Assembly (NCBI RefSeq): GCF_004010195.1
Contig: NC_057754.1
Location: 3,804,546-3,845,094 of the forward strand
Direction of reading: 5' to 3'
Origin: Chiloscyllium plagiosum
Lineage: Eukaryota
DNA: 40,549 nucleotides
Shown: piece after piece, positions 1-40,549 of the stretch
Position numbering within the stretch: position 1 is the stretch's first letter
Layout: every line of letters begins with the position of its first letter
Notes under the pieces: generated by a model
What the model saw: the letters and a program-made list of their open reading frames with translations, nothing else
Told to the model about the DNA's origin: nothing
Database searches by the model: none
Translations under genes and position numbers: made by a program

Positions 1-1352
1 CATATAAAATTCACAAAAATAAAGGCTCTCTAATACACTCACAACAGTATAATAAAAAACTATTTCTAAATAATAAAAAAAATATTTAAATGGAGATTTT
101 CCCCCTTTTTCCCAGGGGGAAAATATATATATTCTATATATATTATTCTATATATATATATAGAATAATAAAAAAAAAACAAGGGGGGGGAGAAAATCGT
201 TAAGTAGAGAACAAATAAATAAATCCCTCTCCCCCCCCCCCAAGATAATATGAAACAGTAAGGTTAAAAAAAGGGATTAATATATAAAATAAAAGGGGAG
301 GGGGGATGTAAACCGGAGTGGGGGGAAAGCAAACCAACATCAATTATCTCTTACAATTTATCTAAGTCCAAAAATTCCTTGGCCTTTTCCGGCGATCCGA
401 AGTTATACACGGACCCTTCATGGTTAAAGCGTAGCATCGCTGGGTAGCGCAAGGAGTACTGAATATATAAGTCCCTTAAACACTTCTTCGCCTCATCAAA
501 CACCTTCCTCTTTCGGACCAGAGCTGGGGAAAAGTCCTGGAATAACATGATCTTGGATCCTTTATAGATCATGGCTTGGGGATCTTTTCCAAGATTTCTG
601 GAGACTTCCAGGAGCATCTGCCTCTCCTTGTAGCTCTGCAGCCAGAACAGGACCGGGCGGGGGCGCTGGTTCGAGCCGGGCCCGCGTATTGCAACCCGGT
701 AGGCCCATTCCACCCTTACCTGGCCTGATCCAGCCTCCAGATTTAATATCTATGGAAGCCACTGTTCAAGAAACTCTGTAAGCTGGCCTTCCTCTTCCCG
801 TTCGGGAAGGCCCAGCGAATGAATATTTTTTTGACGACCTCATTTCTCGAGGTCGTCGCTGTGATTCTCTAAGGTCCGGACTCGCTGTTCAAGAGTCCAG
901 ACCCAATCCACGGCCGATTGTGCTGTAGTTTCAGAGGTCGTGGCCTTTAGCTCCGCCCCTCCAACTCGGCACTCGATTTCCTTAATGTCTCGGTCGGTGC
1001 TTTTGCAGCGCGGCCGAGAGTGAGTCAGCTTCGGGATTCTTCAATAAAAGCGTCGATCTTCGCATCGAGTTTGGAGATGATTTCCACGAGGCTCGCCACC
1101 ATAGGTAAGTCCCCCGGGGCAGCTGGAGCGGGTGAGGGTGGGGTTCCTGCTTGCTGAGAGCTGCGGGTTCCCTTCCCTTTAGTCACTTTTACTGGAGATT
1201 AAATTGTTTAAATTCAATACTAAACAACTAATTACATTAAGATGATTTGGTGAGTGTGGTGGGAGTGGGTGACCCACTTTGCCCAAGTCTTGGGAGGAGT
1301 ACTGTAGACTCAGACTTGCTGGGTTGCCGCCATCTTGGATCCCCCGGAAGTC
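1..1352 (-). mobile_element. L1-clade LINE: 5' UTR, disrupted ORF1 (about 351-1186) and T-rich inter-ORF spacer; antisense within an SRR intron
   Basis: ORF 351-713 encodes RPRPVL...IMLFQDFSPALVRKRK.F...YSLRYPAMLR, an L1 ORF1p C-terminus. The 5' end reads GACTTCCGG...CAAGATGGCGG. The probable ORF1 start is now GTG at 1186-1184. Confidence 0.88.
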
Positions 1353-1447
1353 AGTGTTATGGCTGTGGGGAAGGTGCACAAAGAGTGAAGTCCAAATTAG
1401 ATTGAAATTTGAGAGGTCCATACAGAAATCTAACAACATAACGTGGT

Positions 1448-1771
1448 AGGCAGTGGCCTGGTGGAATTATCACTGGACTGTTAATCCAGAAACCCAGGTA
1501 ATGTTCTGGGGACCCAGGTTCAAATCCGACCAGGGCAGACTGTGCAATTTGAATTCAGTGAGTATCTGGATGAATCCATTGTCGAGTGTCAGGAAAAACC
1601 GATCTGATTCCTTTAAGAAAGGAAACTGCCATCCTTGCCTGGTCTGGACTACCTGTTACTCCAGACCCACAGTTGACTCTTAACTGCTCCCCGGACAATT
1701 AGGGATGGGCTATAAATGCTGGCCTAATCAGCGACGCCTTCATCCAGTGCATGAATAAAGAAAAAAATAAA
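1448..1771 (+). mobile_element. tRNA-derived SINE (family 2) with a LINE-derived tail
   Basis: A-box-like head, B-box ggttcaaatcc and an A-rich tail. Reverse-orientation copies lie at about 33335-33660 and 38790-39350. Confidence 0.75.
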
Positions 1772-2354
1772 GTGGGAAGAAGCTGTTCTTGAATCTGTTG
1801 GAACAAGTGTTTAAGCTTTTGTATCTTCCTGACGGAAGGGGTCGGAAAAGATGATAAGCGGGGTGGGAGGGGACTTTGACTATGTTGGCTGCCTTTCCAA
1901 GGTAGTGGGAAGTATAGAGGGGAGGTTGGCTTGTGTGATGGTCTGGGCTGTTTTCACAACTCTCTGTAGTTTCTTACGGTCTTGGGGAGAGCAGTTGCCC
2001 AAGCCATGATGCATTCAGATAGAATGCTTTCTATGGTGCACCAGTGAAAATTGGTCAGTGCCTCTATGGCTTTGCTGAATTTCCTTAGCCCCCTGCGGAA
2101 GGAGAGGTGTTTTTGTGCTTTCTGTAGATCAGGACTGCAGCGAATTAGTTGCTGTTGAAGGAAGTGACGTACTGTTGAACCTTTTTGCCTTGTCCACATC
2201 AGGATGAAATTGCCAGAATGCCAAATCTCAAAGGGAACAACATTTTATATTGCATTAGAAGAGGGTGCTGACTGAATGGCAAATTTACTGTGTTTGTTGA
2301 GGCACTGCCATGGCAAATGCGCCAGGGGTTGGCTCTAATCTAAATCCCCAAGCT

Positions 2355-2570
2355 TTAATAAAAACAAAATACTACGGGTACTGGAAATCCGAAATAAAAA
2401 GTGGAAAGCTCAGCAGGTCTAGCAGCATCTGTGGAGAATGAAACATTTACGTTTTGAGTGCAGTCTGCCAGAGCTCTGAAGAAGACTTGTGCCGGACTCG
2501 AAACATTAACTCTGCCTCTGTCTTCAGAGGTGTTGCCAGACGTGCTGAGTTTCTCCAGCACTTTCTGTCC
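2355..2570. mobile_element. Degenerate Penelope-like inverted-repeat element with a hammerhead-like core at 2476-2504
   Basis: Imperfect palindrome (ctcagcaggtctagcagcatct...gtgttgccagacgtgctgag) around CTGAAGA...GAAAC. Confidence 0.65.
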
Positions 2571-2737
2571 CCAACCTTGCTTTGGTTGAAAAGACACAAT
2601 GCGTAGGCATGTTTTTTTTTTCTGTTTGCAAAGCACATGGCCCTGTGTGTAAATCTATCTTTAGCTTGTAGCATGTGCGAGTGAGCCACACTGCTCTGAA
2701 ATTAATTCTTGCTTTGTTATTGTTTATCTTCCATAAG

Positions 2738-2857
2738 TCAAGAATGGAAACCGTGTCCAAGGTCATAGCGGAGACCCAGGGGATTCAAATCCACTCTAAC
2801 CAAGATGCCCTTGTGATTGCTGGTCAAGGCACCATAGGACTGGAGATCTTGCAACAA
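2738..2857 (+). CDS. SRR: Serine racemase, internal coding exon (SRMETVSKVIAETQGIQIHSNQDALVIAGQGTIGLEILQQ)
   Basis: 120-nt phase 0/0 exon between ...ccataAG and GTaacc. The translation matches the SRR segment H-x-NQ...VIAGQGTI-x-LE. Confidence 0.93.
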
Positions 2858-3592
2858 GTAACCAGAATCATTGTGTCTAAGTATATAGAACAGATGAAGG
2901 AGCCATTGTGTGTAATAGGGATTTAGGTAGAGTGTGTTCCATTGACCTGCACCCAACCTCTGTGCAATTGTACCTTTTTCTGCAACACGGACCAATCTTG
3001 CTTCAATTGCATAGGAGCTTAGATAGACCAGTCTGGAGTTCTGTCTGCTGTTTGACCTCCTTGTCTCAGGAAACATATTATTGCCATCGAGGGAGTGCAA
3101 TGAAGGTTCACCAGATTTATTTCTGGGATGGCAGGACTGTCCTATAAAGAGAAATTGGGCTTGAATTCACTAAAGTATCAAAGAGTGTGAGGTGACTTAG
3201 TTGAAATCAACAAAATACTGAAACGGATAGAGATTGGTAAGATGTTTTCCCTGCTTGGGGAGTCCAGACCTGGGAGGTACAATTTAAACATAAAGGGATA
3301 AACACAAACTATTTAGGAACAAGATAAGAAATTTGTTTTCCTCAGAGGGTTATGAATCTTTAGAATTTTCCACCACGGAGGGCTGTGGAAGTTCACTCTT
3401 GGAGTATGTTTAAAATCGAGATTGATAAATATTTGATTATCAATGGCACAAAGGATTATGAGATCAATATGGGGATAGGGGGTAGCAGTGTGGGCTGAAT
3501 GGCTTATCGCTGCTCCTGTGTTGCTGTCTCAATGCTCTGTTCCAATATAACCGCTCTTCCCATGGGCTCTTACTTGGTCTCCTGTCAAACAG

Positions 3593-3667
3593 GTCCCAGA
3601 TGTACAGGCTGTGGTGGTTCCAGTTGGTGGTGGAGGAATGGTCTCTGGAATCACAGTCGCCATCAAG
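3593..3667 (+). CDS. SRR: Serine racemase exon (VPDVQAVVVPVGGGGMVSGITVAIK), PLP phosphate-binding glycine loop
   Basis: 75-nt exon, ...caaacAG / GTagga. It contains the VPVGGGG motif of fold-type II PLP enzymes and is in frame with its neighbours. Confidence 0.95.
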
Positions 3668-3832
3668 GTAGGATATATGGTTGGGAGATGAGTAATGGGC
3701 ACTAACTATGTTGCACGCGGAGAGCTGGAGCTAACAGTGTAAACACACAGTGTGTTATACGTGTTCTGTTGGATGTCACGCTCACACCTTCCATTCTTGT
3801 CCCCTTCTACCAACCACCCCCGTCCTCCGCAG

Positions 3833-4042
3833 ACTCAACGTCCACAGGTCAAAATTTATGCAGCAGAACCGGAGAAGGCAGATGACTGTTACCAGTCCAA
3901 GCAGTGTGGCTGCCTGACCCCCAACAAGTACGCTCCTGTGACAATAGCTGATGGAGTGAAGACTAGCATTGGGGAGAAGACTTGGCCCATCATCAGGGAC
4001 CTGGTGGATGATGTGTTCACCGTCAGTGAGGAGGAGATTAAG
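3833..4042 (+). CDS. SRR: Serine racemase exon (TQRPQVKIYAAEPEKADDCYQSK...TIADGVKTSIGEKTWPIIRDLVDDVFTVSEEEIK)
   Basis: 210-nt exon, ...ccgcAG / GTacct. It carries the AAEP..ADDC metal-binding segment and TIADGVK/TWPIIRDLVDD, both typical of SRR. Confidence 0.96.
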
Positions 4043-5339: not shown

Positions 5340-5965
5340 CCATGACTCACTGGGTGGCACTGTCACCCAAGTCAGTGAGTTATGGGTTTGAGAGCCCCAG
5401 GGACTGGAACATAAATTCTGGATTAGAGTGGTGCTGGAAAAGCACAGCAGTTCAGGCAGCATCTGAGGAGCAGGAAAATCGACGTTTCAAGCAAAAGCCC
5501 TTCATCAGGAATACTTTTGCCCGAAACGTCGATTTTCCTGCTCCTCGGATGCTGCCTGACCTGCTGTGCTTTTCCAGCACCACTCTAATCCAGAGTCTGG
5601 TTTCCAGCATCTGCAGACATTGTTTTTACCGACTGGAACATAAATCCCAGGCTGACTCTCCCAGTGCCTGTACTGAGGGAGTGCTGCACCCATCAGAGGT
5701 GCTGTTGTTTTAGGTGAAACTGAGGCCTCTAGCTGCCTTTTCATGTGGGTATAAAAGGTCACTGCAGTATTCCAACAAAGAGGGTGGGGGGTGCTGTTCT
5801 CACCACTGTCTTGTCCCTCCGTGGATATCGCAAAGCAAATGTTTTGTCGTTATTTCATGTTGTTGGCATCTTTGTGTGTGCCAGATTTCCTGTGTTACAG
5901 CAGTGACTACGCTTGACAACAAATCTCAGTGGCTGCAAAGTATTTTGGGACATATTACACCTGGT
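5340..5965 (+). mobile_element. Old DeuSINE-like element interrupted by a Penelope-like insertion
   Basis: The motifs ggctgac..cccagtgc..tactgagggagtgctgca and ggtataaaagg resemble the Deu-domain SINE body from memory; a related copy lies at 16130-16375. Confidence 0.55.
5417..5630. mobile_element. Short Penelope-like palindromic insertion with a 15-bp TSD
   Basis: About 80-90-bp inverted arms. The TSD gactggaacataaat is at 5402-5416 and 5631-5645. The minus strand has CTGATGA-aGGGCttttGCTT-GAAACGTC. Confidence 0.85.
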
Positions 5966-7225: not shown

Positions 7226-7411
7226 CGGGCTACACGGCTGATGTGGGAGCGGGCGAAGCTGGTGATTGAGCCCACCGCGGGCGTCGGGGTCGCAGTGGTC
7301 CTCTCCCCCCGGTTTCGAGACCTCCCGGGCAATCTCCGCAATGTCTGTGTGGTGCTGTGTGGAGGCAACGTGGACTTGGACTCTCTTGATTGGCTGAAGG
7401 TCACTGAGTGA
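7226..7411 (+). CDS. SRR: Serine racemase, last coding exon (RATRLMWERAKLVIEPTAGVGVAVVLS...VVLCGGNVDLDSLDWLKVTE*)
   Basis: Polypyrimidine tract plus ttgcAG acceptor; WERxKLxIEPTAGVG and GGNVD motifs; TGA at 7409-7411. Confidence 0.95.
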   Translation, partial: RATRLMWERAKLVIEPTAGVGVAVVLSPRFRDLPGNLRNVCVVLCGGNVDLDSLDWLKVTE

Positions 7412-8299: not shown

Positions 8300-9628
8300 T
8301 GTTATGGATCAGACCAGACCAGTCTAGACTCTAACCTTTTTCTTATTTTAACGGTAGATGTGAAGTAGCATGTTCCAGATGCAATACAACTGGTCAAACT
8401 ACTCAATGTTAAGAAAAACTCAATTTATTTAGGGTGTATAGTTAATGAAGTGGGCATTGACATGGGGCATGCTGACACGGGGCACACAGACACAAGATGG
8501 CCGCTGAGCCATAAGTTGGTCGCTTAGCACACAAGATGGCCACTGAGCCATAAGTTGGTACTTAGCACACAAGATGGCCGCTGAGCCATTACATGGAAAG
8601 TACAGCGAAGCATACACAGATATGCCTGAGGCCAACAGGATACCAGCACAATAGACACAGAATATAGATAATTAATTTAAAGTGGGTGGGGGAGAGAATA
8701 CACATCAGTAACATCTACTGCCCGCCGAAGTGTCTGAGTCCAGCCACCACCTTCAATAGAAATGTTAACTCCCTGATTCTGCTTGTATACATGTATTAAT
8801 ACCTTAGATTGGCAGTAATGGAAAACGATCTTCCTTCTCAGGAAGGATGATCACGACCAATTACTGCAGCAATGGACTTCTGGGTAGCTGCTGAAACTGA
8901 CAATGACTCTGTAACATTCCTCTGAAACCCACAATGACTCTGTAATGTTTTCTGTAAGCAAACCATGCTGCACAAACAAAGACTCGCTATCTGGACCATT
9001 ATACCATGAATTGTATAAAACATCGTGACATGTACTCCAGGGGGGGAAGAGAAGACTGGCAGCTGACAGCCATGCTGCCGGATCTCTCTTTCTCTCCTCG
9101 GGGCTCCGGTTTCTTTGTACAATGTTGCTGAATCCCGATTCTGACTCTGAAACTGGTGATTTTCCCCACAACAATTAAAATACAAACAAGAGAAATACTT
9201 AGCTATCGGAAAATGTAACCAGATAATAGATACAATATCATTACTAATTAACCGTTCCAATATAATAACACCCTGTAAACACATGGCAAAAGGCAAATTC
9301 AGACACAGATTCTCACATGCAGTTCTCCAATCCCAGAGGAAAAAACATCAAGAGGAAATTCAGAGAGCATAGCAGGTAGGAATCATTCACTGAAGCTTCC
9401 AGCTCTTCTGAGATCCCAAAGGGCTTCTGCTGCTTCAAGCTGAATAAAACACTAGAAAGCCTGGTCTGTGAAAGTTGCTTCCATTATTCCAACTTTTGGA
9501 AAAAAAACCTGAAGGTCTCACAAGTTGTTTACATATGTGATTTGGTAGGCAGTTTGTCACCTCTGTCTTACAACTTCTCAAATAAAAACAGGACTAAGTA
9601 ACCTTTTAAAGCAACAGCATTGGTCACA
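8300..9628. mobile_element. Solo-LTR-like element (TG...CA, 4-bp TSD GGAC), probably with a second LTR-like insert at about 8430-9170
   Basis: Starts TGTTATGG (8300) and ends GGTCACA (9628). GGAC is at 8296-8299 and 9629-9632. There are internal short tandem repeats and a TATAAAA near 9015. Confidence 0.65.
8491..8589 (+). repeat. About 2.6 copies of a 38-39-bp tandem repeat, each containing CAAGATGGCC
   Basis: Units of cacaagatggcc(g/a)ctgagccataagttggt..cttagca start at 8491, 8530 and 8568. Confidence 0.9.
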
Positions 9629-17420: not shown

Positions 17421-18778
17421 CCACACACTGAGACTTACTGATGATCCTGATGAGTGCAAGAGAAAACGGAATATGTCTTTTTTTAAAAGAATACTAGCGC
17501 TGTACTACTAAATGACTATCAACATGGATTTCTTCAGGTAGAATCATCTTTAACTGATCAACTGGAACGTTTTCTCACAGGTAACAGATTTGGTTAGGAC
17601 AGTGCCGTTGATCTAGATACTTGGATGTCCAGAAGGCAGTTAATACAGTGACATACAACAGACTTGTGAGGAAGGCTTGAGATCATGCAATAAAAAGATA
17701 GTAGCAACATGGATACACGTTGGCTGAGGAACTGGAAAGGATAACATGGATTTTGTTTTGGAATGGGGTTAGATTTGGAGGATCAGTGTTTGGACCCTTG
17801 ATATAGAGATCTGCATCAGATCTAGAAGAATAGGGAATAATTTCAAAATCTGTGGATGATATGAAACTGAGAAGCATTGTAAACTGAGGAGGGTAATATA
17901 GACAGGTAAGATGGTGGAGGTGAAGAATGGCAGATGTTCAATGCAGTGAAGTGTCAGGTGATGCATTTTACTAGGAAGAACATGGAGACAGTTTATATCA
18001 TAGGGTATAACTAAAGAGAAATCAGGAACAGAGAGACTCTACCAGAGTCCACTTTCCAAGTAATCAGCACCTTCCTTTTACAGTTTAAATGTTATTTGCC
18101 CTCATAGAATCTCTACGGTCTGAAAACAGACTCTTTAGAGTCCACACTACCCCTCCAAAGAACTTCCCACCCAAACCCAACCCTCAACCTACAATGTTGC
18201 GTTTCCCATGGCTAATCCACTCGTCTGCACATCTTTGGATCTCTAAGTAGATATTATTTAAAGTTGCCCTGAGGGGCAAGACAAAAAGTTTAAACAAAGC
18301 AATGCTCAAATGATTCCATGCTGGTGCTCCTTAATTAACCCACATTCAACTACATAACTGCTCATTTTGTTTTGAGCTTTCACTATTAGAGGTTTCCCAA
18401 CTAACAATGTTAAACTGACTAGTCTGTAATGACTTGGGCTAATCTAGCATGCTTTTTTGAACCTTTGTAATTCTCCATTTATCTAATACTGTCCCAGGGT
18501 CTAAGGAAGACTGAAAAAAATATTGCCCGCACCTATGCAATTTCCATTGTCACTTGCCTTTCTAATCTCGGATGCATCTCCTCTGGTCCTGATGCTTTTT
18601 TGACTATTAGGGACAATCTATCCAATATATTTTCCTTAGCAGTTTTAAACTTGCCTATTGAATTTCCCCTGGGTAACATCTTCCTCTTTGGTAAAAGCAG
18701 GTGCAAAGTTCATATTTAGTGTACTTTGTATGTGTGTATAAGTTATAGAGTTATACAGCATGGAAACACACCTCTCAA

Positions 18779-19575
18779 AGTTTGTGAGAAGATTTGTAGC
18801 CCAGGTGCTCGCTGTTGTGGTTCTGTTCGCCGAGCTGGGAATTTGTGTTGCAGACATTTCACCCCCTGTCTAGGTGACATCCTCAGTGCTTGGGAGCCTC
18901 CTGTGAAGCGCTTCTATGATCTTTCCTCCGGCATTTATAGTGGTTTGTCTCTGCCGCTTCCGGTTGTCAGTTCCAGCTGTCCGTTGCAGTGGTCGGTATA
19001 TTGGGTCCAGGTCGATGTGCTTATTGATTGAATCTGTGGATGAGTGCCATGCCTCTAGGAATTCCCTGGCTGTTCTCTGTTTGGCTTGACCTTTAATAGT
19101 AGCGTTGTCCCAGTCGAATTCATGTTGCTTGTCATCTGCATGTGTGGCTACTAAGGATAGCTGGTCGTGTCAGACAACAACTCAACAGAACGAAGGACCC
19201 AATACCCAGCATGAGCAAAACCAATGTAGCGTACAAAATCCCATGCAAGGACTGCACAAAACACTACATAGGACAAACAGGAAGACAGCTAACGATCCGC
19301 ATCCATGAACACCAACTAGCCACGAAATGACACGACCAGCTATCCTTAGTAGCCACACACACAGATGACAAGCAACATGANNNNNNNNNNNNNNNNNNNN
19401 NNNNNCGGACAGCTGGAACTGACAACCGGAAGCGGCAGAGACAAACCACTACAAATGCCAGAGGAAAGATCACAGAAGCGCTTCACAGGAGGCTCCCAAG
19501 CACTGAGGATGTCACCTAGGCAGGGGACGAAACGTCTGCAACACAAATTCCCAGCTCGGCGAACAGAACCACAAC
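18779..19575. mobile_element. Penelope-like retroelement with an inverted terminal arm and a GIY-YIG endonuclease remnant
   Basis: 19172-19330 encodes KTNVAYKIPCKDCTKHYIGQTGRQLTIRIHEH. About 18813-19170 is the reverse complement of the right part. A 14-bp TSD aacacacct(c/t)tcaa is at 18765-18778 and 19576-19589. Confidence 0.9.
19500..19539 (+). ncRNA. Minimal type I hammerhead ribozyme motif
   Basis: gca-CTGAGGA-t-GTCaCCT aggc AGGgGAC-GAAAC-GTC-tgc: intact core, stem II, a 3-bp stem I and a GUC site. Confidence 0.75.
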
Positions 19576-21047
19576 AACACACCTTTCAATCCAACTGGTC
19601 CATGCCAACCATAATCCCAAACTAAACTAGTCCCATTTGCCTGTTCCTGGCCCATATCTCTCACCTTTCCTATTCACGTACAAATCCGGCTGACTTTTAA
19701 ATATTGTAATTGTACCCACACTTACCACTTCCTTTGGAATTTCATTTGTATCACAGATTTCATTTTAGGGCATAAGAATACAAGAGGAAGAAGGTTATGA
19801 TGAACTTGTATAAGAAGTATTGCATGCAGTTCTGGGTGTTGCTTCATAAGAAAGATATGAAGATATTAGAGAGAGTGCATAAGCAATTTATGAGTATAAT
19901 TCCGGAGTGAGGAATCATAATAATGAAGGTATATTGACAAATCTGGGAGCATTCTCATTGGCAAAGAGAAAGCTGAGAGGCGATTGGATCGGATCAGCAC
20001 CTCTCTTGTCAGAATAAAAACACAGACAATGAACACCCCTGAAAGGATGGTCGATAAAACGGCATAGATTTTGAGTACATCAGCAAAAGCAGGGTGAGGA
20101 AAACCTCATCAAACCGAGTGGCTGGATCTGGAATGTGCTGCCTGACAGTGTGATTGAAGTAGATTCAATCGAGGGATTCAAAAGGGAATTAGATGGTTAT
20201 TCGCAAAGGATAGTTTGCCAGGTTTATGGGGAGAACTCATGAAAATGGCACCAGAAGAATTGCTCTTTCAAGGAGCTGGCTCAGTCACAATAGTCCAATG
20301 GCCTCCTTCTGCTCTGTAAGAATTCTGTGATTCTCGAACTCAAGCCACCTTTGTCTTCTACTACCTTTTTAATCTTCAAACACACTGATCTCACTTATTG
20401 GAATTGTCCCCATCCCAAAGATCTGAACTTGCTCGTGCAGAAACCTGGTGTTGGTCATGACTGCCTTTACTGTCTCTGAGTAAGGAAGTTGCGGGTTTAA
20501 ACCCTGCTCCAGGGACCTGAGACGAAAATGAAGGCTGACACTTCCCTCAGTGTCGCACAGTCAGCAGGGTCTGGTGGTTCAGACATGTTTATTTAAGATG
20601 TGAAATGGTTGATGTCAGTTGACAGTGCCAGTGGTGACAGAGCCTTCACCAGCATGCACAGGAGTGGGGAGAAACCTCCATTGTTAAAATGGGAACCTAT
20701 TAAAATGATGCGGAATTGCATTTTATTATGATCTTCAATCCTCGTGTCTAACCACAGAAGAGCAAACAGTGATTTTGCACATGAACGGGTCTGTCAAGGG
20801 ATGTGCATGGAGAATCTATGCTCTGTTTCCAATAGCAATTCTGTCATAAAGTCGTACAGCTCAGAAACAAATCGTACAGTCCAATCATCCATGCCGACCA
20901 GATATCCTAATTTAATCAAGTCTCATTTGCCAGGATTTGGTCCATATCCCTCTAAACCCTTCCTATTCATATACACAATCCAGGTGCCTTTGATATGTTG
21001 TAGTTGTACCAGCCTCCACCACTTCCTCTGGCAGCTCATTCCGTACT

Positions 21048-21275
21048 TTGGATTAGTGGTGCTGGAAGAGCACAGCAGTTCAGGCAGCATCCAAGGAGCT
21101 TCGAAATCGACGTTTCGGGCAAAAGCCCTTCATCAGGAATAAAGGCAGTGAGTCTGGAGCGTGGAGAGATAAGCTAGAGGAGGGTGGGGGTGGGGAGAAA
21201 GTAGCATAGAGTACAATAGGTGAGTGGGGGAGGGGATGAAGGTGATAGGTCAGGGAGGAGAGGGTGGAGTGGATG
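21048..21275 (-). mobile_element. Penelope-like terminal fragment
   Basis: Same family as 5417-5630, followed by a purine-rich tract; inserted into a HER1 fragment. Confidence 0.8.
21107..21138 (-). ncRNA. Minimal type I hammerhead ribozyme motif
   Basis: The minus strand reads tc-CTGATGA-a-GGGC tttt GCCC-GAAAC-GTC-ga. Confidence 0.75.
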
Positions 21276-24486: not shown

Positions 24487-25380
24487 TTTTTTTTTCTCTC
24501 TTCTTTCTTTTTTGAGACACAGTGAAAGACACAAAGTGCACGAATCTTTATTCAGTTTCCACCACCAGGAAGAAAGGAAAACACCCAAGTGACAAGCAGT
24601 GCCCTTCACATCAAAGGGCAGTGCTGTGTGATCAAACAGTGAAGGGGAGGACAGGGATTAAATCAAAATAGAGTTGGAGGGGGAAATAATGCACTCCACT
24701 CCCTGCGGCGCCCACCTCTCCCTGAACAACTCCAGGGTGTTGGTGGACACCGCGTGCTCCTTCTCCAAGGACACCCGGGCCCTAACGTAACCGCGGAAGG
24801 GGGGCAGGCAGTCGGCCCTAACGACCCCCTCCACGGCCCACTGCCTGGACCCGTTGATGGCCAGTTTGGCCAGGCCCAGGAGCAGACCCACGAGGAGGTC
24901 TTCAGACCTGCCCTCCCTCCTCCGTACCGGGTGCCCGAAGATCAGGAGCGTGGGACTGAAGTGCAACCAAAAGCAGAGGAGGAGGTTTTTCAGAAAATCA
25001 AAAAGGGGGTGCAAACACCCACACCCAATATATACATGGAGTTGGGCTGGGAGTCCGTGAACCACTGCAATCTGCGGTTACAGGGGACCGCTGTGTGCAG
25101 CACCCTCCACCCCAGATCCCCGAGAGAAAGGGGGAGGACACCAGCGTAGAGAGCCCTCCACTGGGGATCCCCACTGCCTGGTGGTAAACGGGCAGGTCAA
25201 GGTGTGTCTGAGCGGTGGATGAGAGAGAAGAGGTAGATGATGTGCAGTAGCAGTCTATATAGGGCCCACTGTGACACTCCGGTTTCTATCTGTCAGCCAG
25301 GACTCCCTGATTTGGGCCAGGTTAACAGCCCCACTCAGGGAACTCAGATTCTATGAGGCCCACCTGGCTGACATCGTAAC
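24487..25380 (-). mobile_element. Tx1-like (L1 clade) retrotransposon 3' end: ORF2 C-terminus, AATAAA and an A-rich tail
   Basis: ORF 24658-25065 (LHPLFDFLKNLL..FWLHFSPTLLIFGHPV...LLLGLAKLAI..SR...FRERWA) resembles the Tx1 ORF2 end. tttatt is at about 24547 and a T-run starts at 24487. Confidence 0.8.
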
Positions 25381-25744: not shown

Positions 25745-26335
25745 CACAGAGTCATAGGTGTACAGCACGGAAAAGACCCTTTGGTCCAACCCGTCCATGT
25801 CGACCAGATATCCCAACCCAATCTAGTCCCACCTGCCAGCACCCAGCCCATATCCCTCCAAACCCTTCCCAATCATATACCCATCCAGATGCCTTTTAAA
25901 TGTTGCAATTGTACCAGCCTCCACCACATCCTCTGGCAGCTCATTCCACACACATACCACCTTCTGCGTGAAAAAGAGCATCCAAGGAGCAGGAGAATCG
26001 ATGTTTCGGGCATGAGCCCTTCTTGATTCCTGAAGAAGGGCTCAGGCCCGAAACGTCGATTCTCCTGGTCCTTGGATGCTGCCTGACCTGCTGCGCTTTT
26101 CTAGCAACACATTTTCAGCTCCCCCTCCCCAGGGAAAAGACCTTGTCTATTTATCCTATCTATGCCCCCGAGTTTTTATAAACCTCTATAAGGTCACCCC
26201 TCAGCCTCCAACACTTGCCAGCACTTGGCCCATATCTCTCTAAACCCTTCCTATTCATACACCCATCCAGCTGCCTTTTTAAAGGTTGTCATTGAACCAG
26301 CCTCCACCACTTTCCCCTGGCAGCTCACTCCACAG
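25745..26335 (-). mobile_element. HER1 3' fragments interrupted by a Penelope-like palindrome (about 25977-26120)
   Basis: HER1 tail sequence lies on both sides of an inverted repeat. Confidence 0.8.
26028..26059 (+). ncRNA. Minimal type I hammerhead ribozyme motif
   Basis: tc-CTGAAGA-a-GGGC tcag GCCC-GAAAC-GTC-ga. Confidence 0.72.
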
Positions 26336-26559: not shown

Positions 26560-26630
26560 AACGCTGAGAGGGATTTCAGAAGCCGGAAGGGATTTACGAC
26601 TGGGTCAGAGAAGGGAGGCGAAGATGGCAG
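26560..26630 (+). promoter_or_regulatory. Likely TATA-less CCS promoter/5' UTR with an ETS-type CCGGAAG and a YY1-like AAGATGGC overlapping the ATG
   Basis: CCGGAAG at 26583-26589, AAGATGGC at 26621-26628, and locally raised CpG. This is a typical housekeeping-promoter pattern; the function is inferred. Confidence 0.55.
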
Positions 26631-26644
26631 CCACTAGCAGCAAG
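26624..26644 (+). CDS. CCS: Copper chaperone for superoxide dismutase, first coding exon (MAATSSK)
   Basis: aagATGG Kozak context and AAG/GTagcg donor. Phase 0 joins LEFAVQM of the next exon, and an ETS motif lies just upstream. The exon is short, so it is assigned mainly from context. Confidence 0.75.
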
Positions 26645-27629
26645 GTAGCGGGTTGTGCGTGATGAGCAATGTTTGAGCGTGAAATGTATACCCCTGTCCC
26701 ATTTTGTTTTGTGAAACTGAATGCTCTGTTGCATTGCATGGTGCCTGTGATCACTGAAGTTGCTGCCTCACTCCATTCACTTTGGATCGATTTGCAACGC
26801 AGCTTATTCTAGTCCTCTCCCTGCCTTTGATGCATGGGGTTGGAATATTTAAAGCCTCCCCCGGACTGTTGTTTCATTTTCTAATTGCAGTGTTTTGGGG
26901 GAAGGGAGAGGCAGGAAGGAAGGGACTGTTTTCTGGGGGGAGAGGGAAGTGAGCAAGAATGGTTCTGTTTCTTTATATTGGGAGAAGCTTTCTGGCAAGT
27001 TGATGCAGAGTCATTGTTTACTCAGAGACCTTTGCAAGTGAAAACTCCCACAACACCAGGTTATAGTCCAACAGGTTCAGTTGGAAGCACTAGCTTCCTA
27101 AGCGCTGCCCCAAGTGAGTTATCAAAGTGGGAGTGCAAAGGATCTTCCTTGGGATAACTTGCTGTACACAGTGAAGCTATCGCTTCTCCCCTTTTGCCTT
27201 CCTTTGACTGTAAGGCATTTTTAGGACGTCCCCCAGGGATGGGGAGAGGTGCTATATAAATGTACCTGGCACTTTTGAAGGGGAGGTGGTGTGGAGAGAG
27301 AGAAGCTCTATTTCTGCCACCAACTTCCTTGCAACTTTTCCCAGCATTGTCTCAGAGTTAATCATCTTGTAAGGCGGAGAAATGGTCAAAAAGCAATTAA
27401 TAGTTATTTTGTACAAGTGACCATTTGATACACCATCCGGTTGTGATAGAGACTGGCTGGAATGTATTTAGTTCCCTGGCCCCTAAGCACGCCCTCATTA
27501 TTTCTCTATAATCTTGATCCTTTTCCCAGATAAATCTTTAACCCTTACCATACACCAATTCCTGCCCTGTTCACCCACAGTGCTCTCAGATCCACGCTCA
27601 CTTCTAATTCAGGAGCAGTTTATTAAAAA

Positions 27630-29173: not shown

Positions 29174-29246
29174 TTGGAGTTTGCGGTGCAGATGAGCTGC
29201 GAGAGCTGTGCCAACACTGTCAGGAGTGCCTTGACTGGAGTTAATG
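29174..29246 (+). CDS. CCS: CCS exon 2 (LEFAVQMSCESCANTVRSALTGVN), ATX1/HMA-like domain with MxCxxC
   Basis: 73-nt exon, tttAG / GTaagt. LEFAVQM-x-C-x-x-C is the CCS domain I copper-binding motif; the exon is not in the ORF track. Confidence 0.95.
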
Positions 29247-29584
29247 GTAAGTTTCTTCCTGAGACTGCGTGGTTCCAAATCATTCATGACGTAAATCACC
29301 TTCTTCTCCCTCTGCTGTGATTCAGGAGACAGACTGCTGTCTGACCCCTCACTGAGGCGAACCCTCAAGTGTTTGTATGTCGGTGCGCATCAGTGAACAT
29401 AAGGAATAGGCCATTCAGCCCCTCAGGCCGGTTCCGCCATTCACTGAGAGCATCGCAGATCTGTGGCCTAACTGCATATCCCTTTGCTTAACAAAACCGT
29501 ATCTATCTCAGAGTTAAAACTAACCACGGATCTGGCATCAACTGCCGCTTGTGAAAGAGAGTTCCAAACCTCTACCACCCTTTG

Positions 29585-31655
29585 GGGCGGCATGGTGCCT
29601 CAGTGGTTAACACTGCTGCCTCACGGTGCCATGGACCCTCGGGCTACTGTCTGTGTGGAGTTTGCGTATTCTCCCCGTGTCTGCGTGGGTTTTCTCCCAC
29701 AGTTCAAAGATGTGCAGGTTAGGGTGGATTAGCCGTGCTGAATTACCCAGGGATGTGCAGGTTAGTTTGGATTGGTCGTGCTGAATTACCCAGGGGTGTG
29801 CAGGTTAGAGTGGATTGGCCATGCTGAATTACCCAGGGATGTGCAGGTTAGTTTGGATGGGCCGTGCTGAATTACCCAGGGATGTGCAGGTTAGTTTGGA
29901 TTGGCTGCGCTGAATTACCCAGAGGTGTGTAGGTTCGGGTGGATTGGCCGTGCTGAATTACCCAGGGATGTGCAGGTTAGGGTGGATTGGCCGTGCTGAA
30001 TTACCCAGGGGTGTGCAGGTTAGTTTGGATTGGCCGTGCTGAATTACCCAGGGATGTGCAGGTTAGGGTGGATTGGCCGTGCTGAATTACCCAGGGATGT
30101 GCAGGTTAGTTTGGATTGGCTGTGCTGAATTACCCAGGGATGTGCAGGTTAGGGTGGATTGGCAGTGCTGAATTACCCAGGGATGTGCAGATTAGGGTGG
30201 ATTGGCCATGCTGAATTACCCAGGGGTGTGCAAATTAGGGTGGATTGGCCGTGCTGAATTACCCAGGGATGTGCAGGTTAGTTTGGATTGGCTGTGCTGA
30301 ATTACCCGGGGATGTGCAGGTTAGGGTGGATTGGCAGTGCTGAATTACCCAGGGGTGTGCAAATTAGGGTGGATTGGCCGTGCTGAATTGCCCAGGGATG
30401 TGCAGGTTAGTTTGCATTGGCCGTGCTGAATTACCCAGGGGTGTGCAGGTTAGGGTGGATTCGCCGTGCTGAATTACCCAGGGGTGTGCTGGTTAGTTTG
30501 GATTGGCCGTGCTGAATTACCCAGAAATGTGCATGTTAGGGTGAATTGGCCGTGCTGAATTACCCAGGGGTGTGCAGGTTAGGGTGGATTGGCCGTGCTG
30601 TATTACCCAGGGATGTGCAGGGTGGGGTGAATTGGCCATGCTGAATTACCCAGGGGTGTGCAGGTTAGGGTGGATTGGCCGTGCTGAATTACCCAGGGGT
30701 GTGCTGGTTAGTTTGGATGGGCCGTGCTGAATTACCCAGGGATGTGCAGGTTAGTTTGGATTGGCTGTGCTGAATTACCCAGGGGTGTGCAGGTTAGTTT
30801 GGATTGGCCGTGCTGAATTACCCAGGGCTGTGCAGGTTAGGGTGGATTGTCTGTGCTGTATTACCCAGGGATGTGCTGGTTAGTTTGGATTGGCCGTGCT
30901 GAATTACCCAGGGGTGTGCAGGTTAGTTTGGATTGGCTGTGCTGAATTACCCAGGGCTGTGCAGGTTAGGGTGGATTGGCCGTGCTGAATTACCCAGGGG
31001 TGTGCAGGTTAGGGCGGGTTGGCCATGCTGAATTACTCAGGGGTGGATTGGCCGTGCTGAATTACCCAGGGCTGTGCAGGTTAGGGTGGATTGGCCGTGC
31101 TGAATTGCCCAGGGCTGTGCTGGTTAGTTTGGATTGGCCGTGCTGAATTACCCAGGGCTGTGCAGGTTAGGGTGGATTGGCCGTGCTGAATTACCCAGGG
31201 CTGTGCAGGTTAGGGTGGATTGGCCGTGCTGAATTGCCCAGGGCTGTGCGGGTTAGGGTGGATTGGCCGTGCTGTATTACCCAGGGCTGTGCAGGTTAGG
31301 GTGGATTGGCCGTGCTGTATTACCTAGGGGTGTGCAGGTTAGGGTGAATTGGCTGTGCTGAATTACCCAGGGATGTGCAGGTTAGTTTGGATTGGCCGTG
31401 CTGAATTGCCCAGGGCTGTGCAGGTTAGCGTGTATTGGCCGTGCTGAATTACCCAGGGATGTGCAGGTTAGTTTGGATTGGCCGTGCTGAATTGCCCATA
31501 GTGTCGAGGGATGTGCTGGCTGGGTGGGTTAGCCATGAGCAATGCAGGGTTACAGGGATAAGGTAGTGTTTTGGGTGGGATGCTCTTCAGAGAGTCCATG
31601 TGGACTTGATGGGACAAATGACCTGCTTCCACACGAGGAATTCTGTGATTTAATG
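29585..31655 (+). mobile_element. HE1-type SINE expanded internally by a minisatellite
   Basis: SINE head at about 29585-29708 and SINE tail at about 31498-31655, flanking the array. Confidence 0.85.
29709..31497 (+). repeat. Minisatellite with a 43-bp unit, about 42 copies, in CCS intron 2
   Basis: Unit gatgtgcaggttag(ggt/ttt)ggattggccgtgctgaattacccagg; unit starts at 29709 and 29752 give a period of 43. Confidence 0.97.
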
Positions 31656-32119: not shown

Positions 32120-32670
32120 GACCCACAGTCCTTTCAGGTGAGACAGAGGTTTGCCTGCCTCTCTTCCAACCTCATTTATTGCATCAGGTGCTCCCAGTGT
32201 AGTCTCTACATCGGGGAGACCGAGCGTAAACTTAGGGAACGTTTCGCTGAGCATCTCAGCCAGGCCCACAGGGGCCAACCAGTTATCGTCCCGTTTTAAT
32301 TCTCCTTCCCACTCCCTTTCTGACATGACCATCCTTGGCCTCCTCCATTGCCACAATGAACCTCACCATAAATTGGAGGAACAACACCTCGCATTCTGCA
32401 TGAGTTCTCCAATTTCAAATCCCCTCTCTTCCCATCCCCCGACTCCCTTCCCAGGCCCTCCCCAGTCCTTCCGCTGCTCNNNNNNNNNNNNNNNNNNNNN
32501 NNNNNNNNNNNNNNNNNNNNNNNNCCTCCCCACCATGCCCCCACCATCCCCTTTATCTGCAGCTCCCCCCACACCCAACCCCAGTCCTGAAGAAGGGGTA
32601 CACCCGAAACGCCCACTTTTTCACCTCCTGATTCTGCCTGGCTTGCTGTGTTCCTCCAACCTCCTTCCTG
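32120..32670 (+). mobile_element. Penelope-like element 3' part with a GIY-YIG remnant and a decayed hammerhead (32587-32613)
   Basis: The frame from about 32132 reads FQVRQRFACLSSNLIYCIRCSQCSLYIGETERKLRERFAEHL. Downstream is CTGAAGA-aGGGgtacaCCC-GAAAC-GCC. Confidence 0.85.
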
Positions 32671-32754
32671 TCTGGTGGGGAAAGTGTTAGCACTGATCAT
32701 TAATCAGGAAGGGTCCATGTGGTGTTGTCAAATGGGAGCTCGTGTTTAACTAAG

Positions 32755-34357: not shown

Positions 34358-34780
34358 TGAAAACAGACCAAATGCTGGAGATCACAACGGGTCAGGCAGC
34401 ATCCATGGAGAGAGAGCAAGCTAACGTTTCGAGACTGGATGAGTGTTCTTCAGAGCTGACGTGGAGGGGGCAGCATTTGTGCAATAGTGGGGACAGTGTG
34501 CGTTGGAGTGCTGGGGGGGGGGGGAAAAGGATGTTGGTAATTCAGGATGAAGTGATCGGACTTTGGGAATGGCCGAACAATGATGCCAGACTGGAAAAAA
34601 AACAGACCGTCCCACTGGGGAGGGGAGAGGGGATGACAGAGAATGTAACCGGGCAAAACTGAAATGAAGGGAAGGAATGGATTCCCAATCTGAAGAAGTT
34701 GAACTCCAAAAGGTTGTGAAGTGCCTGGTGTGAAGATGAGATGTTGCTCCTCGAGTCTGCGCTGTGATTTGCTCACGGGT
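34358..34780 (-). mobile_element. Penelope-like terminal fragment with a decayed hammerhead (34419-34457)
   Basis: The minus strand encodes QRRLEEQHLIF, as in the 32120 element, and reads agct-CTGAAGA...GAAAC-GTT-agct. Confidence 0.75.
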
Positions 34781-34804
34781 TGTGAGTCGCACTGGCTAGT
34801 CTCA

Positions 34805-35046
34805 AAGTTAAATATCTCACAACACCAGGTTATAGTCTAACAGGTTTAATTGGAAGCACTAGCTTTCGGAGCGTCGCTCCTTCATCGGGTGATAGTGGAG
34901 GACACAACCTGCTGTCCACTACCACCTGATGAAGGAGCGACGCTCCGAAAGCCAGTGCTTCCAATTAAACCTGTTGGACTATAACCTTGGTGTTGTGAGA
35001 TATTTAACTTTGTACACCCCAGTCCAACACCGGCCTCTCCAAATCA
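34805..35046. mobile_element. Short Penelope-like palindromic insertion (third family) with a 12-bp TSD
   Basis: About 95-bp inverted arms (34805-34898 versus about 34915-35010). The TSD tggctagtctca is at 34793-34804 and 35047-35058. A partial relative lies at about 27040-27110. Confidence 0.87.
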
Positions 35047-35149: not shown

Positions 35150-35339
35150 CACCATATAATTGTTACTGGATGAACAGAGGGAGAGGGGTTCAGAGTTCAA
35201 AGGTCAGTGGGAGAGGGGGCATATCAATGGATGCAACAAGCCCATTTCACCACCTCCCCCCGGTTCAGGACAGCTGGTACAGAGCATGTCGCTGGTGCAA
35301 AAGCTGTTCTCGTAATGAGCTGCCTCCGATTTCTTGCAG

Positions 35340-35477
35340 GAATCCAATCGGTGGATATTGATGTCAGCACAGAGCAGGTACTAATCGACACAACACTGAC
35401 ATCCAGGGAGGTGCAGGAGCTGATAGAGAGCACGGGCAGACGGGCCGTGTTAAAAGGCATGGGCCCATCCACTCTCA
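35340..35477 (+). CDS. CCS: CCS exon 3 (GIQSVDIDVSTEQVLIDTTLTSREVQELIESTGRRAVLKGMGPSTL)
   Basis: 138-nt phase 1/1 exon, ttcttgcAG / GTgagt; contains the E-x-TGR-x-AVLKGMG motif. Confidence 0.95.
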
Positions 35478-35534: not shown

Positions 35535-36310
35535 ATTATTGAGGGAGTTTTACTCTGCATCTAACCCCGTGCTGTTCCGGGAGTGTTTAATGTGGAGAGG
35601 GAAGAATGTGGTGCTTGAAAGACACAGCAGGTCAGGCAGCATTCGAGGAGCAGGAAAATCGACGTTTCAGGCAAAAGCTCTTCATCAGGACGTTTTATCC
35701 GAAACATCGATTTTCCTGCTCCTCGGATGCTGCCTGACCTGCTGTGCTTTTCCAGCACCACACTCTTGATTCTAATCACCAGCACCTGCAGTCCTCACTT
35801 TTGCCACAATGTAGAGTGGGCTTTACTCTGTATCTAACCCCGTGCTGTCCCTGTCCTGGGAGTATTTGATAGGGGACAATGTACAGGGAGCTTTCCTCTG
35901 TACCTAGCCCCGTGCTGTCCCTGTCCAAGGAGTATTTGATGGGATAGTGTTGAAGGAGCTTTACTCTGTGTTTAACCCCATGTTGTCCCTGTGCAAGGAG
36001 TGTATGATGGCGGGACAGTGTAGAGGAAGCTTTACTCTGTATCTAACCCTGTGCTGTCCCTGTCCTGGGGAGTGTTTGTTGGGGACAGTGTAGAGTGAGC
36101 TTTACTCTGTATCTAACCCTGTGCTGTCCCTGTCCTGGGGAGTGTTTGTTGGGGACAGTGTAGAGGGAGCTTTATTCTGTATCTGACCCTGTGCGGCCCC
36201 TGTCCTGGGGAGTGTTTGTTGGGGACAGTGTAGAGGGAGCTTTACTCTGTATCTGACCCCGTGCTGCACCTGTCCTGGGGAGTGTTTGTTGGGGACAGTG
36301 TAGAGGGAAC
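35535..36310 (+). repeat. Minisatellite with a 69-70-bp unit, about 8 copies, interrupted by a Penelope-like palindrome (about 35605-35806), in CCS intron 3
   Basis: tgtcctgggg recurs at 36061, 36131, 36201 and 36271. Unit: gggagctttactctgtatctaaccccgtgctgtccctgtcctgggagtgtttgatggggacagtgtaga. Confidence 0.93.
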
Positions 36311-36375
36311 CTTGTCTTCAGTCTAAAGGAGCAGAGGGAGGGGTCTAACCTGCGCACTGTGGTGTTTCTCTGCAG

Positions 36376-36553
36376 AGGACCTGGGTGCTGCTGTGGCCAT
36401 GCTGGGCCCAGAGGGCAACATCAAGGGTGCAGTGCGATTCCTGCAGCTGTCGGAGAAGATGTGCCTCATCGAGGGAACAGTCGATGGTCTGAAACCTGGC
36501 CAACATGGGCTGCACGTGCACGAGTTCGGAGACCTGACCAACTCCTGCCTCAG
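36376..36553 (+). CDS. CCS: CCS exon 4 (DLGAAVAMLG...GAVRFLQLS...CLIEGTVDGLKPGQHGLHVHEFGDLTNSCL), SOD-like domain
   Basis: 178-nt exon, tctctgcAG / GTacac, with the LGAAVA, VRFLQL and HGLHVH-x-FGDL motifs. No later CCS exons were found in the window. Confidence 0.96.
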
Positions 36554-39238: not shown

Positions 39239-39610
39239 CTTAATTCCAGTAATCTTATTTATATGTATTGAATTCAATTTCTGCCATGGCAGGGTTCAAA
39301 CCCAGGTCCCCAGAGCATTGCCTAGTGATAATACCAAGGATATCACCTCCCCTTGAGGGAGATCTATGTCATCAAATTGAAAACACCACATTGAATTGTT
39401 CATGTCACTCGATAAAAGAACATCTTGCAAGTGCTGCCTTCTAGGGGCAGTGCAGCACTAACAAAAATAGGGGAACTGTAAAAGGAGGGAGGAAGCGATC
39501 AAATTAAAAGGGAGTTTGTGGGGGATATAATATACACAGCCCCCACTCCAGGCTCTACCCGTCAATTCATTAATCAATTGACCTCAATCATTTAATGATC
39601 TACTTGCAAT

Positions 39611-39975
39611 TGTTGTGGCTCTGTTCGCCGAGCTGGGAATTTGTGTTGCAGACGTTTCACCCTCTGTCTAGGTGACATCCTCAGTGCTTGGGAGCCTCCT
39701 GTGAAGCGCTTCTGTGATCTTTCCTCTGGCATTTATAGTTATTTGTACCTGCCGCTTCCAGTTGTCAGTTCCAGCTGTCTGCTGTAGTGGCTGGTATATT
39801 GGGTCCAGGTCGATGTGCTTATTGATTGAATCTGTGGATGAGTGCCATGCCTCTAGGAATTCCCTGGCTGTTCTCTGTTTGGCTTGTCCTATAATAGTAG
39901 CGTTGTCCCAGTCGAAATCATGTTGCTTGTCATCTGCGTGTGGCTACTAAGGATAGCTGGTCGTGTCGTTTCGTG
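39611..39975 (-). mobile_element. Penelope-like terminal fragment (same family as 18779-19575)
   Basis: Near-identical to 18813-19170, with a hammerhead-like motif at 39648-39687. Confidence 0.88.
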
Positions 39976-40549
39976 ACACTTTAATCAGCAGGGACAGTGT
40001 GTGTGAGGGTACTGGGTTGCTCCTTTATCCTTGTCACTTATCCAGATCAGCAGAACTCTGTCAGTTTGTAGCTGAGTCACTGTGGCGAGAATTGTGGGAG
40101 GGGGCATAACATGATAAAACCCAGAGCGGGGCAGATGGACCAAGCAGATAAGTGTCTTTGTTCTGGGAATTCTCCCATCAATGACTCCTGAAATGCTACT
40201 TTAGAAGTTTCAGCGGGAATATCTACACATGCATAATAGCTGTTTCACTTTTCTTAATCTGACATCAAACACATGCTTCTTTCCCTGTCTGCTGCAGTGT
40301 GAGGCACGGAGTAGACCCAGAGTATCCTGGCGCCAGAGATCTGCCACCCCATCTCTCACTGCCACTCCTGTTTCACAGAACACACTCAGCTCATCACTGT
40401 ACTGGAAACCACTGCAAATATTAAACTCAGTGATCACGATAGTTACCCAGGATGCATAGACTTGCTGAGACATTTGTATCATCAATAGTTGCACTTTATG
40501 TGCCAGAAGACTGGAGGTTGGCTAATGTGGTGCCATTCTTTAAGAAAGG

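Follow-up and report, generated by a model that had tools for sequence, protein, structure and literature searches.

Minimal hammerhead ribozymes of Penelope-like elements (PLEs) were described by Cervera and De la Pena in 2014 (PMC4209133) as type I motifs without helix III, with a palindrome at positions 15.2-16.2, one additional nucleotide separating position 9 from 10.1, and a G10.1-C11.1 pair. They form many co-varying families per genome, mostly as solo copies of truncated elements, with opposite-strand pairs 100-700 bp apart and with Poseidon and Neptune hosts in fishes; the shark copies described below share these features. Monomers showed no cleavage in that study and dimers low cleavage. 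That study already presents the class itself, its dimer model, families that co-vary and pairs on opposite strands; the sections consulted name no shark and contain no mapping of insertion 5' ends, and the supplement may list shark motifs.

The Poseidon element PAc of Anolis carolinensis (Frangieh et al. 2024, PMC11167929) starts its ORF within the ribozyme, encodes a reverse transcriptase (RT) followed by GIY-YIG, carries an optional 3' tail and occurs in partial tandems, all of which recur in our family A; the ATG within the ribozyme and the tail are already published. Cleavage of PAc was measured and depended on protein, whereas that of family A is a prediction; no RNA-seq ends were seen at the PAc cut, and the RNA inserted in vitro was mainly uncut. 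The EN+ Neptune and Nematis elements (PMC8557442, PMC3846280) have a CxxxxCxxC linker, head-to-head arms, a tail on one arm, target-site duplications and solo pseudo-LTRs (pLTRs), as do the shark copies, and their solo pLTRs were explained via recombination or deletion; a pLTR-internal promoter has also been described (PMC2377424). Non-LTR retrozymes, reported in one chondrichthyan among other hosts, likewise carry type I hammerheads from Penelope pLTRs (bioRxiv 10.64898/2026.07.22.740005). Our literature search, which covered main texts and only a minority of subscription papers, found no paper on shark PLE hammerheads, none on insertion 5' ends piling up at a ribozyme edge and none on overlap of the ribozyme with a stop codon.

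Here we analyze a 40,549-nt stretch of the 3.56-Gb genome of the shark Chiloscyllium plagiosum (the window, G000:C45:3804546-3845094). We read its motifs, with a probability of about 0.8, as minimal type I hammerheads in the pLTRs of five Penelope-like families, present as 5'-truncated, often head-to-head and likely inert copies whose parents would have cut only as dimers or with protein.

Results

Motif inventory and comparison with chance

An earlier note, made from the letters of the window, had listed a set of motifs of one shared architecture. Every one of these was found again, and the total is 12, with core C3 at 2476+, 5508-, 18886-, 19503+, 21136-, 26030+, 32587+, 34453-, 34888-, 34926+, 35688- and 39684- (on the minus strand, the note had given the low, or 3', end of each motif). 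The core heptamer by itself is not enriched (32 in the window vs. 27.5 in shuffles). The strict descriptor, which combines core, stem II, GAAA..UH and stem I, gave 7 matches against a mean of 0.11 (maximum 2) in 200 dinucleotide shuffles, and addition of the palindromic tetramer gave 5 against 0.01. The window motifs, in the type I order CUGANGA ... GAAA ... UH, are above chance. One of the seven strict matches, at 4277-, was rejected as a chance match, as were relaxed matches at 7394+ (the SRR stop region) and 27025-.

Good stems and intact cores are found together at 19503, 21136 and 26030; the copies at 5508, 39684 and 35688 are weakened, and the remaining six are damaged. Stem II pairs are broken in 2476, 34453 and 35688, and the core of 34888 is altered to CCGAUGA. 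The description of stem III as a self-complementary ACGU or AGCU applies to the families but not to 4 of the 12 window copies, where the tetramer is damaged (ACAU at 2476, AUGU at 18886, ACGC at 32587, AGCC at 34926). Similarly, the note was right that several Penelope-like families are present, but its "at least three" becomes five by BLAST grouping: A (19503, 18886, 39684), B (21136, 26030, 5508, 35688), C (34453, with 2476 as an old relative), D (34888, 34926 and a remnant at 27036-27104) and E (32587).

The Rfam search that the note had proposed as a check appears unsuited to the minimal form: within the window no hammerhead (RF00163) scored at E<=5, and a genome-wide search with Hammerhead_1 came back with 0 matches, as did its control. 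The Rfam matches in the window were rejected as chance miRNA-like ones on inverted pairs, far under gathering scores; the family B pairs at 5458-5552 and 25976-26080 score as miRNA-precursor-like hairpins of this kind. Long hairpins of this sort, where intronic, could give dsRNA or editing substrates.

Genomic setting

The window holds the end of the serine racemase gene (SRR), whose stop is near 7411, and the first exons of CCS, whose ATG is at 26624 (Table 1). The intron map of both genes is based on protein homology. The CCS exon shares 98% identity with proteins of Hemiscyllium and Chiloscyllium, which points to a bamboo-type shark, and a motif search of the 10 kb preceding the window located no upstream SRR exons. 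The old C-related motif at 2472..2511 is probably within an SRR intron.

Several other repeats occupy the same stretch. A 43-bp unit repeated more than 40 times forms a tandem array in CCS intron 2 (about 29580-31510); the unit derives from the body of a common repeat, also present at 23027, 32816, 37329 and 37726, that we take to be a tRNA-like SINE. CCS intron 3 holds about seven copies of a 70-bp unit (35803-36320), an array that begins directly where a family B pair (35600..35802) ends. A descriptor scan of the window found no hammerhead motif in either array. Three direct copies of a unit with CAAGATGGC, which we take to be a YY1-like site, lie at 8495-8585, ~1 kb 3' of the SRR stop. The open frames at 351-749 (-) and 24661-25077 (-) had no match in a Pfam search; in our judgment they resemble the C-terminus of L1 ORF1 and the end of a Tx1-type ORF2.

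Table 1. Host genes and hammerhead-bearing insertions in the window (TSD, target-site duplication)
Feature	Position	Strand	Remarks
SRR (serine racemase), gene end	exons about 3593-3667, 3831-4042, 7226-7411	+	
CCS, gene start	coding exons 26624-26644, 29174-29248, 35339-35476, 36378-36551	+	more exons past the window
Family A minimal hammerhead	19500..19539	+	core intact; predicted cut after C19536
Family A head-to-head insertion	18774..19575	both arms	arms 96% complementary; tail and damaged motif 18886- on the minus arm; GIY-YIG C-terminal remnant 19169-19516 on the plus arm, crossing an N gap; TSD 9 bp, at 18765 and 19576
Family A motif	18850..18889	-	tetramer decayed to AUGU; stem II wobble
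Family A 3' fragment, CCS intron 4	39610..39977	-	antisense; motif 39648-39687, core intact, stem II weakened
Family B pLTR fragment	21045..21275	-	no inverted arm; motif 21107-21138, intact, matches the commonest copy letter for letter; predicted cut after 21109
Family B inverted pair	25977..26120	+/-	intact motif 26028-26059 (+); core-less arm 25977-26022 (-); about 560 nt 5' of CCS ATG
Family B inverted pair, last SRR intron	5417..5630	-/+	antisense motif 5479-5510 (-) containing two G-U pairs; plus arm lacks the core and has a tail; TSD 15 bp, at 5402 and 5631
Family B inverted pair, CCS intron 3	35600..35802	-/+	motif 35659-35690 (-), antisense, mismatch in stem II; core-less plus arm
Family C motif, CCS intron 2	34419..34457	-	antisense; stem I AGCU/AGCU; H17 = U; stem II damaged
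Old C-related motif	2472..2511	+	inverted pair with partner core 2527-; tetramer ACAU; stem II damaged
Family D inverted pair, CCS intron 2	34805..35046	-/+	motifs 34857-34891 (-), core U4C, and 34923-34957 (+), U16.1C; tail only on plus arm; TSD 12 bp, at 34793 and 35047
Family D remnant, CCS intron 1	27036..27104	-	cut off within stem II; absent from the earlier list
Family E 3' fragment, CCS intron 2	32130..32690	+	sense; frameshifted GIY-YIG remnant about 32130-32420, N gap, then motif 32584-32616, damaged at U16.1C

Element anatomy

GIY-YIG-type coding sequence precedes the motif in all five families, and an RT ORF follows it in family A; this coding context places the hammerheads in the pLTRs of Penelope-like elements in every family. 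Three insertions in the window are arranged head-to-head, carry a tail on a single arm and have TSDs of 9, 12 and 15 bp, which is the published PLE layout. All window copies are solo or inverted. Membership in the non-LTR retrozymes, which are head-to-tail arrays with a ribozyme per unit (bioRxiv 10.64898/2026.07.22.740005), was rejected because the window lacks head-to-tail tandem units each bearing a hammerhead.

The intact family A motif at 19500-19539 reads GCA, CUGAGGA, a bulged U, an 18-nt stem II, GAA, ACGU, C19536 and UGC, with stem I as GCA/UGC, the core at 19503-19509 and stem II as GUC-A-CCU/AGG-G-GAC. It contains the stop codon of the upstream ORF (TAG 19517-19519, ...STEDVT*) and the ATG of the next (19509-19511, MSPRQG...), so that ~17 bases (19503-19519; loci L015 and L023) are used three times, as ribozyme core and stem II, as ORF end and stop, and as the start of the next ORF. 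The variable core position 7 of the A group is a third codon position (Glu/Asp). The insertion that holds this motif sits in the 3' end of what we take to be a CR1-like LINE fragment, which resumes past the TSD (18765-19584).

Where family A copies have the element 5' end, the ATG within the core opens an ORF, which stays in frame for at least 549 codons in L023; the upstream ORF ends ...T(E/D)DVT*, with its stop within stem II in 77 of 85 A-group copies. Pfam matched RVT_1 above cut-off (E 1.4e-9 and 1.9e-11). For the GIY-YIG-like domain C-terminal to RT, the family A match (E 0.026; Atlas look-alikes 0.95) lies below the curated cut-off, as does the other Pfam GIY-YIG score (E 0.049), and the D and C pieces gave none. 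Nothing in the PDB matched the RT or endonuclease pieces of family A by sequence, and the CxxxxCxxC linker was found in none of 19 family A loci. Judged by its domains, family A fits the Penelope/Poseidon clade (a single ORF, RT then GIY-YIG, without a Zn-finger-like linker), and we class it as Poseidon-type. The predicted cut is 27-28 nt downstream of the ORF start, against 26 nt in PAc, and the accessible text on PAc makes no mention of a stop codon held in stem II (PMC11167929). Four copies (L043, L044, L045 and L036) are internally deleted, with the ORF start fused to the endonuclease end; three of them share one deletion and may form a non-autonomous subfamily.

The linker precedes GIY-YIG in B (L066, L080), C (L095), D (L108) and E (L143, L149, L153). 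It is a mark of Neptune/Nematis (PMC8557442), and we assign the four families to that clade, as Neptune-type, by this feature. Near family B copies, only RT fragments were found. Family C has a self-complementary stem I (AGCU/AGCU) and U at position 17 (a GUU triplet) in 14 of 15 copies (L082-L105), where family D has A.

Abundance and covariation

A random sample of 120 stretches of 10 kb, taken at round coordinates on 42 large contigs (1,140,988 bases), yielded 79 strict motifs, or 0.69 per 10 kb, which extrapolates to about 2.5 × 10^5 in the genome (Poisson 1.9-3.1 × 10^5); ten Markov-control runs, made for the first 40 stretches, produced none. The 6 strict motifs of the window compare with about 2.8 expected at this rate, and we rejected local enrichment: the density is ordinary. 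The sample descriptor set no requirement for G at 10.1 or for the palindrome; G at 10.1 was present in 79/79 motifs and ACGU or AGCU in 56/79, with 18 CpG-decay forms bringing the tetramer to 74/79. The hallmarks of the minimal class (helix III absent, palindromic tetramer, bulge after A9, G10.1-C11.1) are present. Published totals are about 4,000 for the coelacanth and 9,000 for Xenopus, obtained with different descriptors, and unlike the published motifs those of the shark have a shorter stem I (2-4 bp) and, in family C, U at position 17 (PMC4209133).

The genome searches returned 148-3596 candidates per query, 40 of which were scored for each. For covariation, copies were retrieved through the core boxes only and assigned from the sequence 3' of the ribozyme; the commonest pair was then taken at 3 stem I and 4 stem II positions in six lineages. 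As the earlier note had proposed, the stems co-vary between families: 39 of the 42 cells are Watson-Crick, against 20.7 ± 2.7 with permuted 3' partners. This count was reached in 0 of 20,000 permutations, and among whole-family swaps in 1 of 720, the true order; these figures are not P values, since they come from related lineages, one of which is represented by 3 copies. Inside families the stems decay, with 177 broken against 15 compensatory cells among 2549, and we infer from this that selection acted on master elements rather than on scattered copies. Stem I changes inside the A group, where variants were taken from copies left without a family assignment, are compensatory (GCA/UGC, CCA/UGG, UCA/UGA).

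Predicted activity of the window copies

Several copies do lie in introns of SRR and CCS, as had been noted. Those at 5508- (SRR) and at 34453-, 34888-, 35688- and 39684- (CCS) are antisense, and the sense copies at 32587+ and 34926+ have lost U16.1; no intronic copy combines an intact motif with sense orientation to its host gene. The copies at 19503, 21136 and 26030 fall in the interval separating SRR from CCS, where we identified no host gene that spans them, and each is single on its own strand. The proposal that these three may still self-cleave is weakly supported: their cores are intact, but they are intergenic, and sequestering arms are predicted at 19503 and 26030. Whole-insertion folding gave a predicted stem II probability of 0.00 for 19503, 26030, 34926 and 5508, and 19503 reached 0.04 even when folded alone; 21136 alone keeps stem II (0.46-0.83). 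The inverted arm of the same insertion is thus predicted to abolish stem II in 19503 and 26030, and the window copies are most likely inert. RNAcofold homodimers showed no clear domain-swapped hammerhead in nearest-neighbour folding, which leaves the core unmodelled.

Two single-cell polyA runs compared with a B copy gave 0 and 1059 reads, on both strands. Most reads of the latter run, which is labelled as a species with the B-type repeat, are 90-95% identical to the copy and so come from many loci; molecule starts and ends do not cluster.

Insertion 5' ends

For the B-type set, drawn from the random sample and the window, 171 anchor matches gave 139 copies, and removal of 8 adjoining N left 131 (64 direct copies and 67 arms of inverted pairs, both arms of a pair being counted separately). 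Most are stubs of 90-230 bp, and 20/131 reach more than 80 nt 5' of core C3. The other 111 ends comprise 45 at -7..-2, 6 at -80..-12 and a remainder tailing through the ribozyme; three fall exactly at the cut and one a base later. The pile-up has a P of 8 × 10^-29 against a uniform distribution, a value overstated by the dependence of paired arms; direct copies alone place 19 of 44 ends at -7..-2. Because 37 of the 45 edge-starting copies have a long relative at least 88% identical to them, these ends do not reflect subfamily divergence. A TSD flanks 10 of the 19 direct stubs, 7 of them with at least 8 bp. An extra G, counted by eye, precedes 9 of the 19; it could be a copied cap, a sign too weak to use. 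The hotspot reads UCAUUCC or UUAUUCC, which we take to fit the initiator consensus YYANWYY.

Family D behaves similarly, with 25 of 47 unselected ends at -13..-1 and one at the cut, although some of those at -13/-12 may reflect subfamily divergence. For family A, 57 ORF-start loci, less 1 without anchor and 6 abutting N, left 50 ends (two counted twice) that are spread with no pile-up at the edge; 2 of them fall at -5, and 3 coincide with the cut or lie 1 nt beyond it.

Discussion

Two other accounts of the motif were weighed. It is very unlikely that transcription of the intact copies at 19503, 21136 and 26030 continues and lets them cleave in trans with copies elsewhere, or that the host has recruited them. 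Their cores and stems are unbroken, partners exist because about 2.5 × 10^5 motifs share two palindromes, and B-type RNA is read on both strands and from many loci; set against this are the intergenic position of the three copies, the predicted sequestering at 19503 and 26030, the excess of broken over compensatory cells within families, the published activity (monomers nil, dimers low; PMC4209133) and read ends that show no pile-up at the cut, which is a weak test. We hold it very unlikely that coding or promoter constraint, rather than catalysis, keeps the motif. Such constraint would suit the A group, where core and stem II code for the last residues of an ORF and for the start codon of its successor, as well as the unaffected in vitro insertion of ribozyme mutants (PMC11167929) and the success of Naiad elements without hammerheads (PMC8557442). 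The Neptune-type families, however, have the same core and paired stems with no such coding overlap seen, the A-group stem I changes are compensatory, and core mutants of the anole motif abolished cleavage (PMC11167929).

The B-type pile-up suggests that uncut RNA was reverse transcribed to a start site at the ribozyme edge. Two ribozymes would swap their ACGU/AGCU palindromes to form helix III; RT would start internally, roughly 65-110 nt 3' of the cut site, as in anole Poseidon, would read uncut RNA straight through the ribozyme, and would run off at the RNA 5' end, located at an initiator-like UCAUUCC/UUAUUCC, which ends in the stem I 5' strand. Run-off copying of this kind would leave many 90-170 bp ribozyme-first stubs and inverted pairs. 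We propose tentatively, at a little short of even odds, that the Neptune-type transcript starts at the first hammerhead nucleotides, that internally primed RT yields a strong-stop-like cDNA that integrates alone, and that the rarity of cut-site ends reflects rare cleavage in vivo. The three B-type ends exactly at the cut leave room for some cleavage of the template RNA. The B hotspot may be likened to the initiator-like element inside the rotifer pLTR, and its sharp edge differs from the variable truncation described for related elements (PMC8557442, PMC3846280).

A serious rival to the start-site reading is that the endonuclease nicks an ATT in the element itself, or that the RNA is processed there in some other way. 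The 5' pile-up would then mark the ORF-pLTR junction, a splice or processing site, or a point of RT stalling or template jumping, which we think possible and rather less than probable. In the anole, the Poseidon protein has a preference for 5'-ATT-3' close to the junction of its ORF and pLTR (PMC11167929), and ATT is also the reading of the B hotspot; an intron of D. virilis ends at the helix I 5' end (PMC4209133); and the D ends are broader, with no hotspot in A. The family D edge, on the other hand, lacks ATT, stalling should halt RT at the 3' side of the fold, and the stubs have their own TSDs, in unrelated DNA. The sharp upstream edge with a decaying downstream tail is the shape expected of run-off and premature stops.

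The minimal hammerheads themselves extend the 2014 result to a shark and change nothing in principle; what merits further work is the junction statistics alone. The five families offer natural variants, with GUC, CUA and GUU cut triplets and a ribozyme that shares bases with a stop codon as well as a start codon. From the ~2 × 10^5 insertion junctions that this genome holds, the frequency with which template RNA was cut can be counted directly. This sample suggests that, in the Neptune-type families, it was rarely cut. If the start-site reading is true, about a quarter million ribozyme-first stubs would be a fossil record of an uncut 5' ribozyme in the transposition template.
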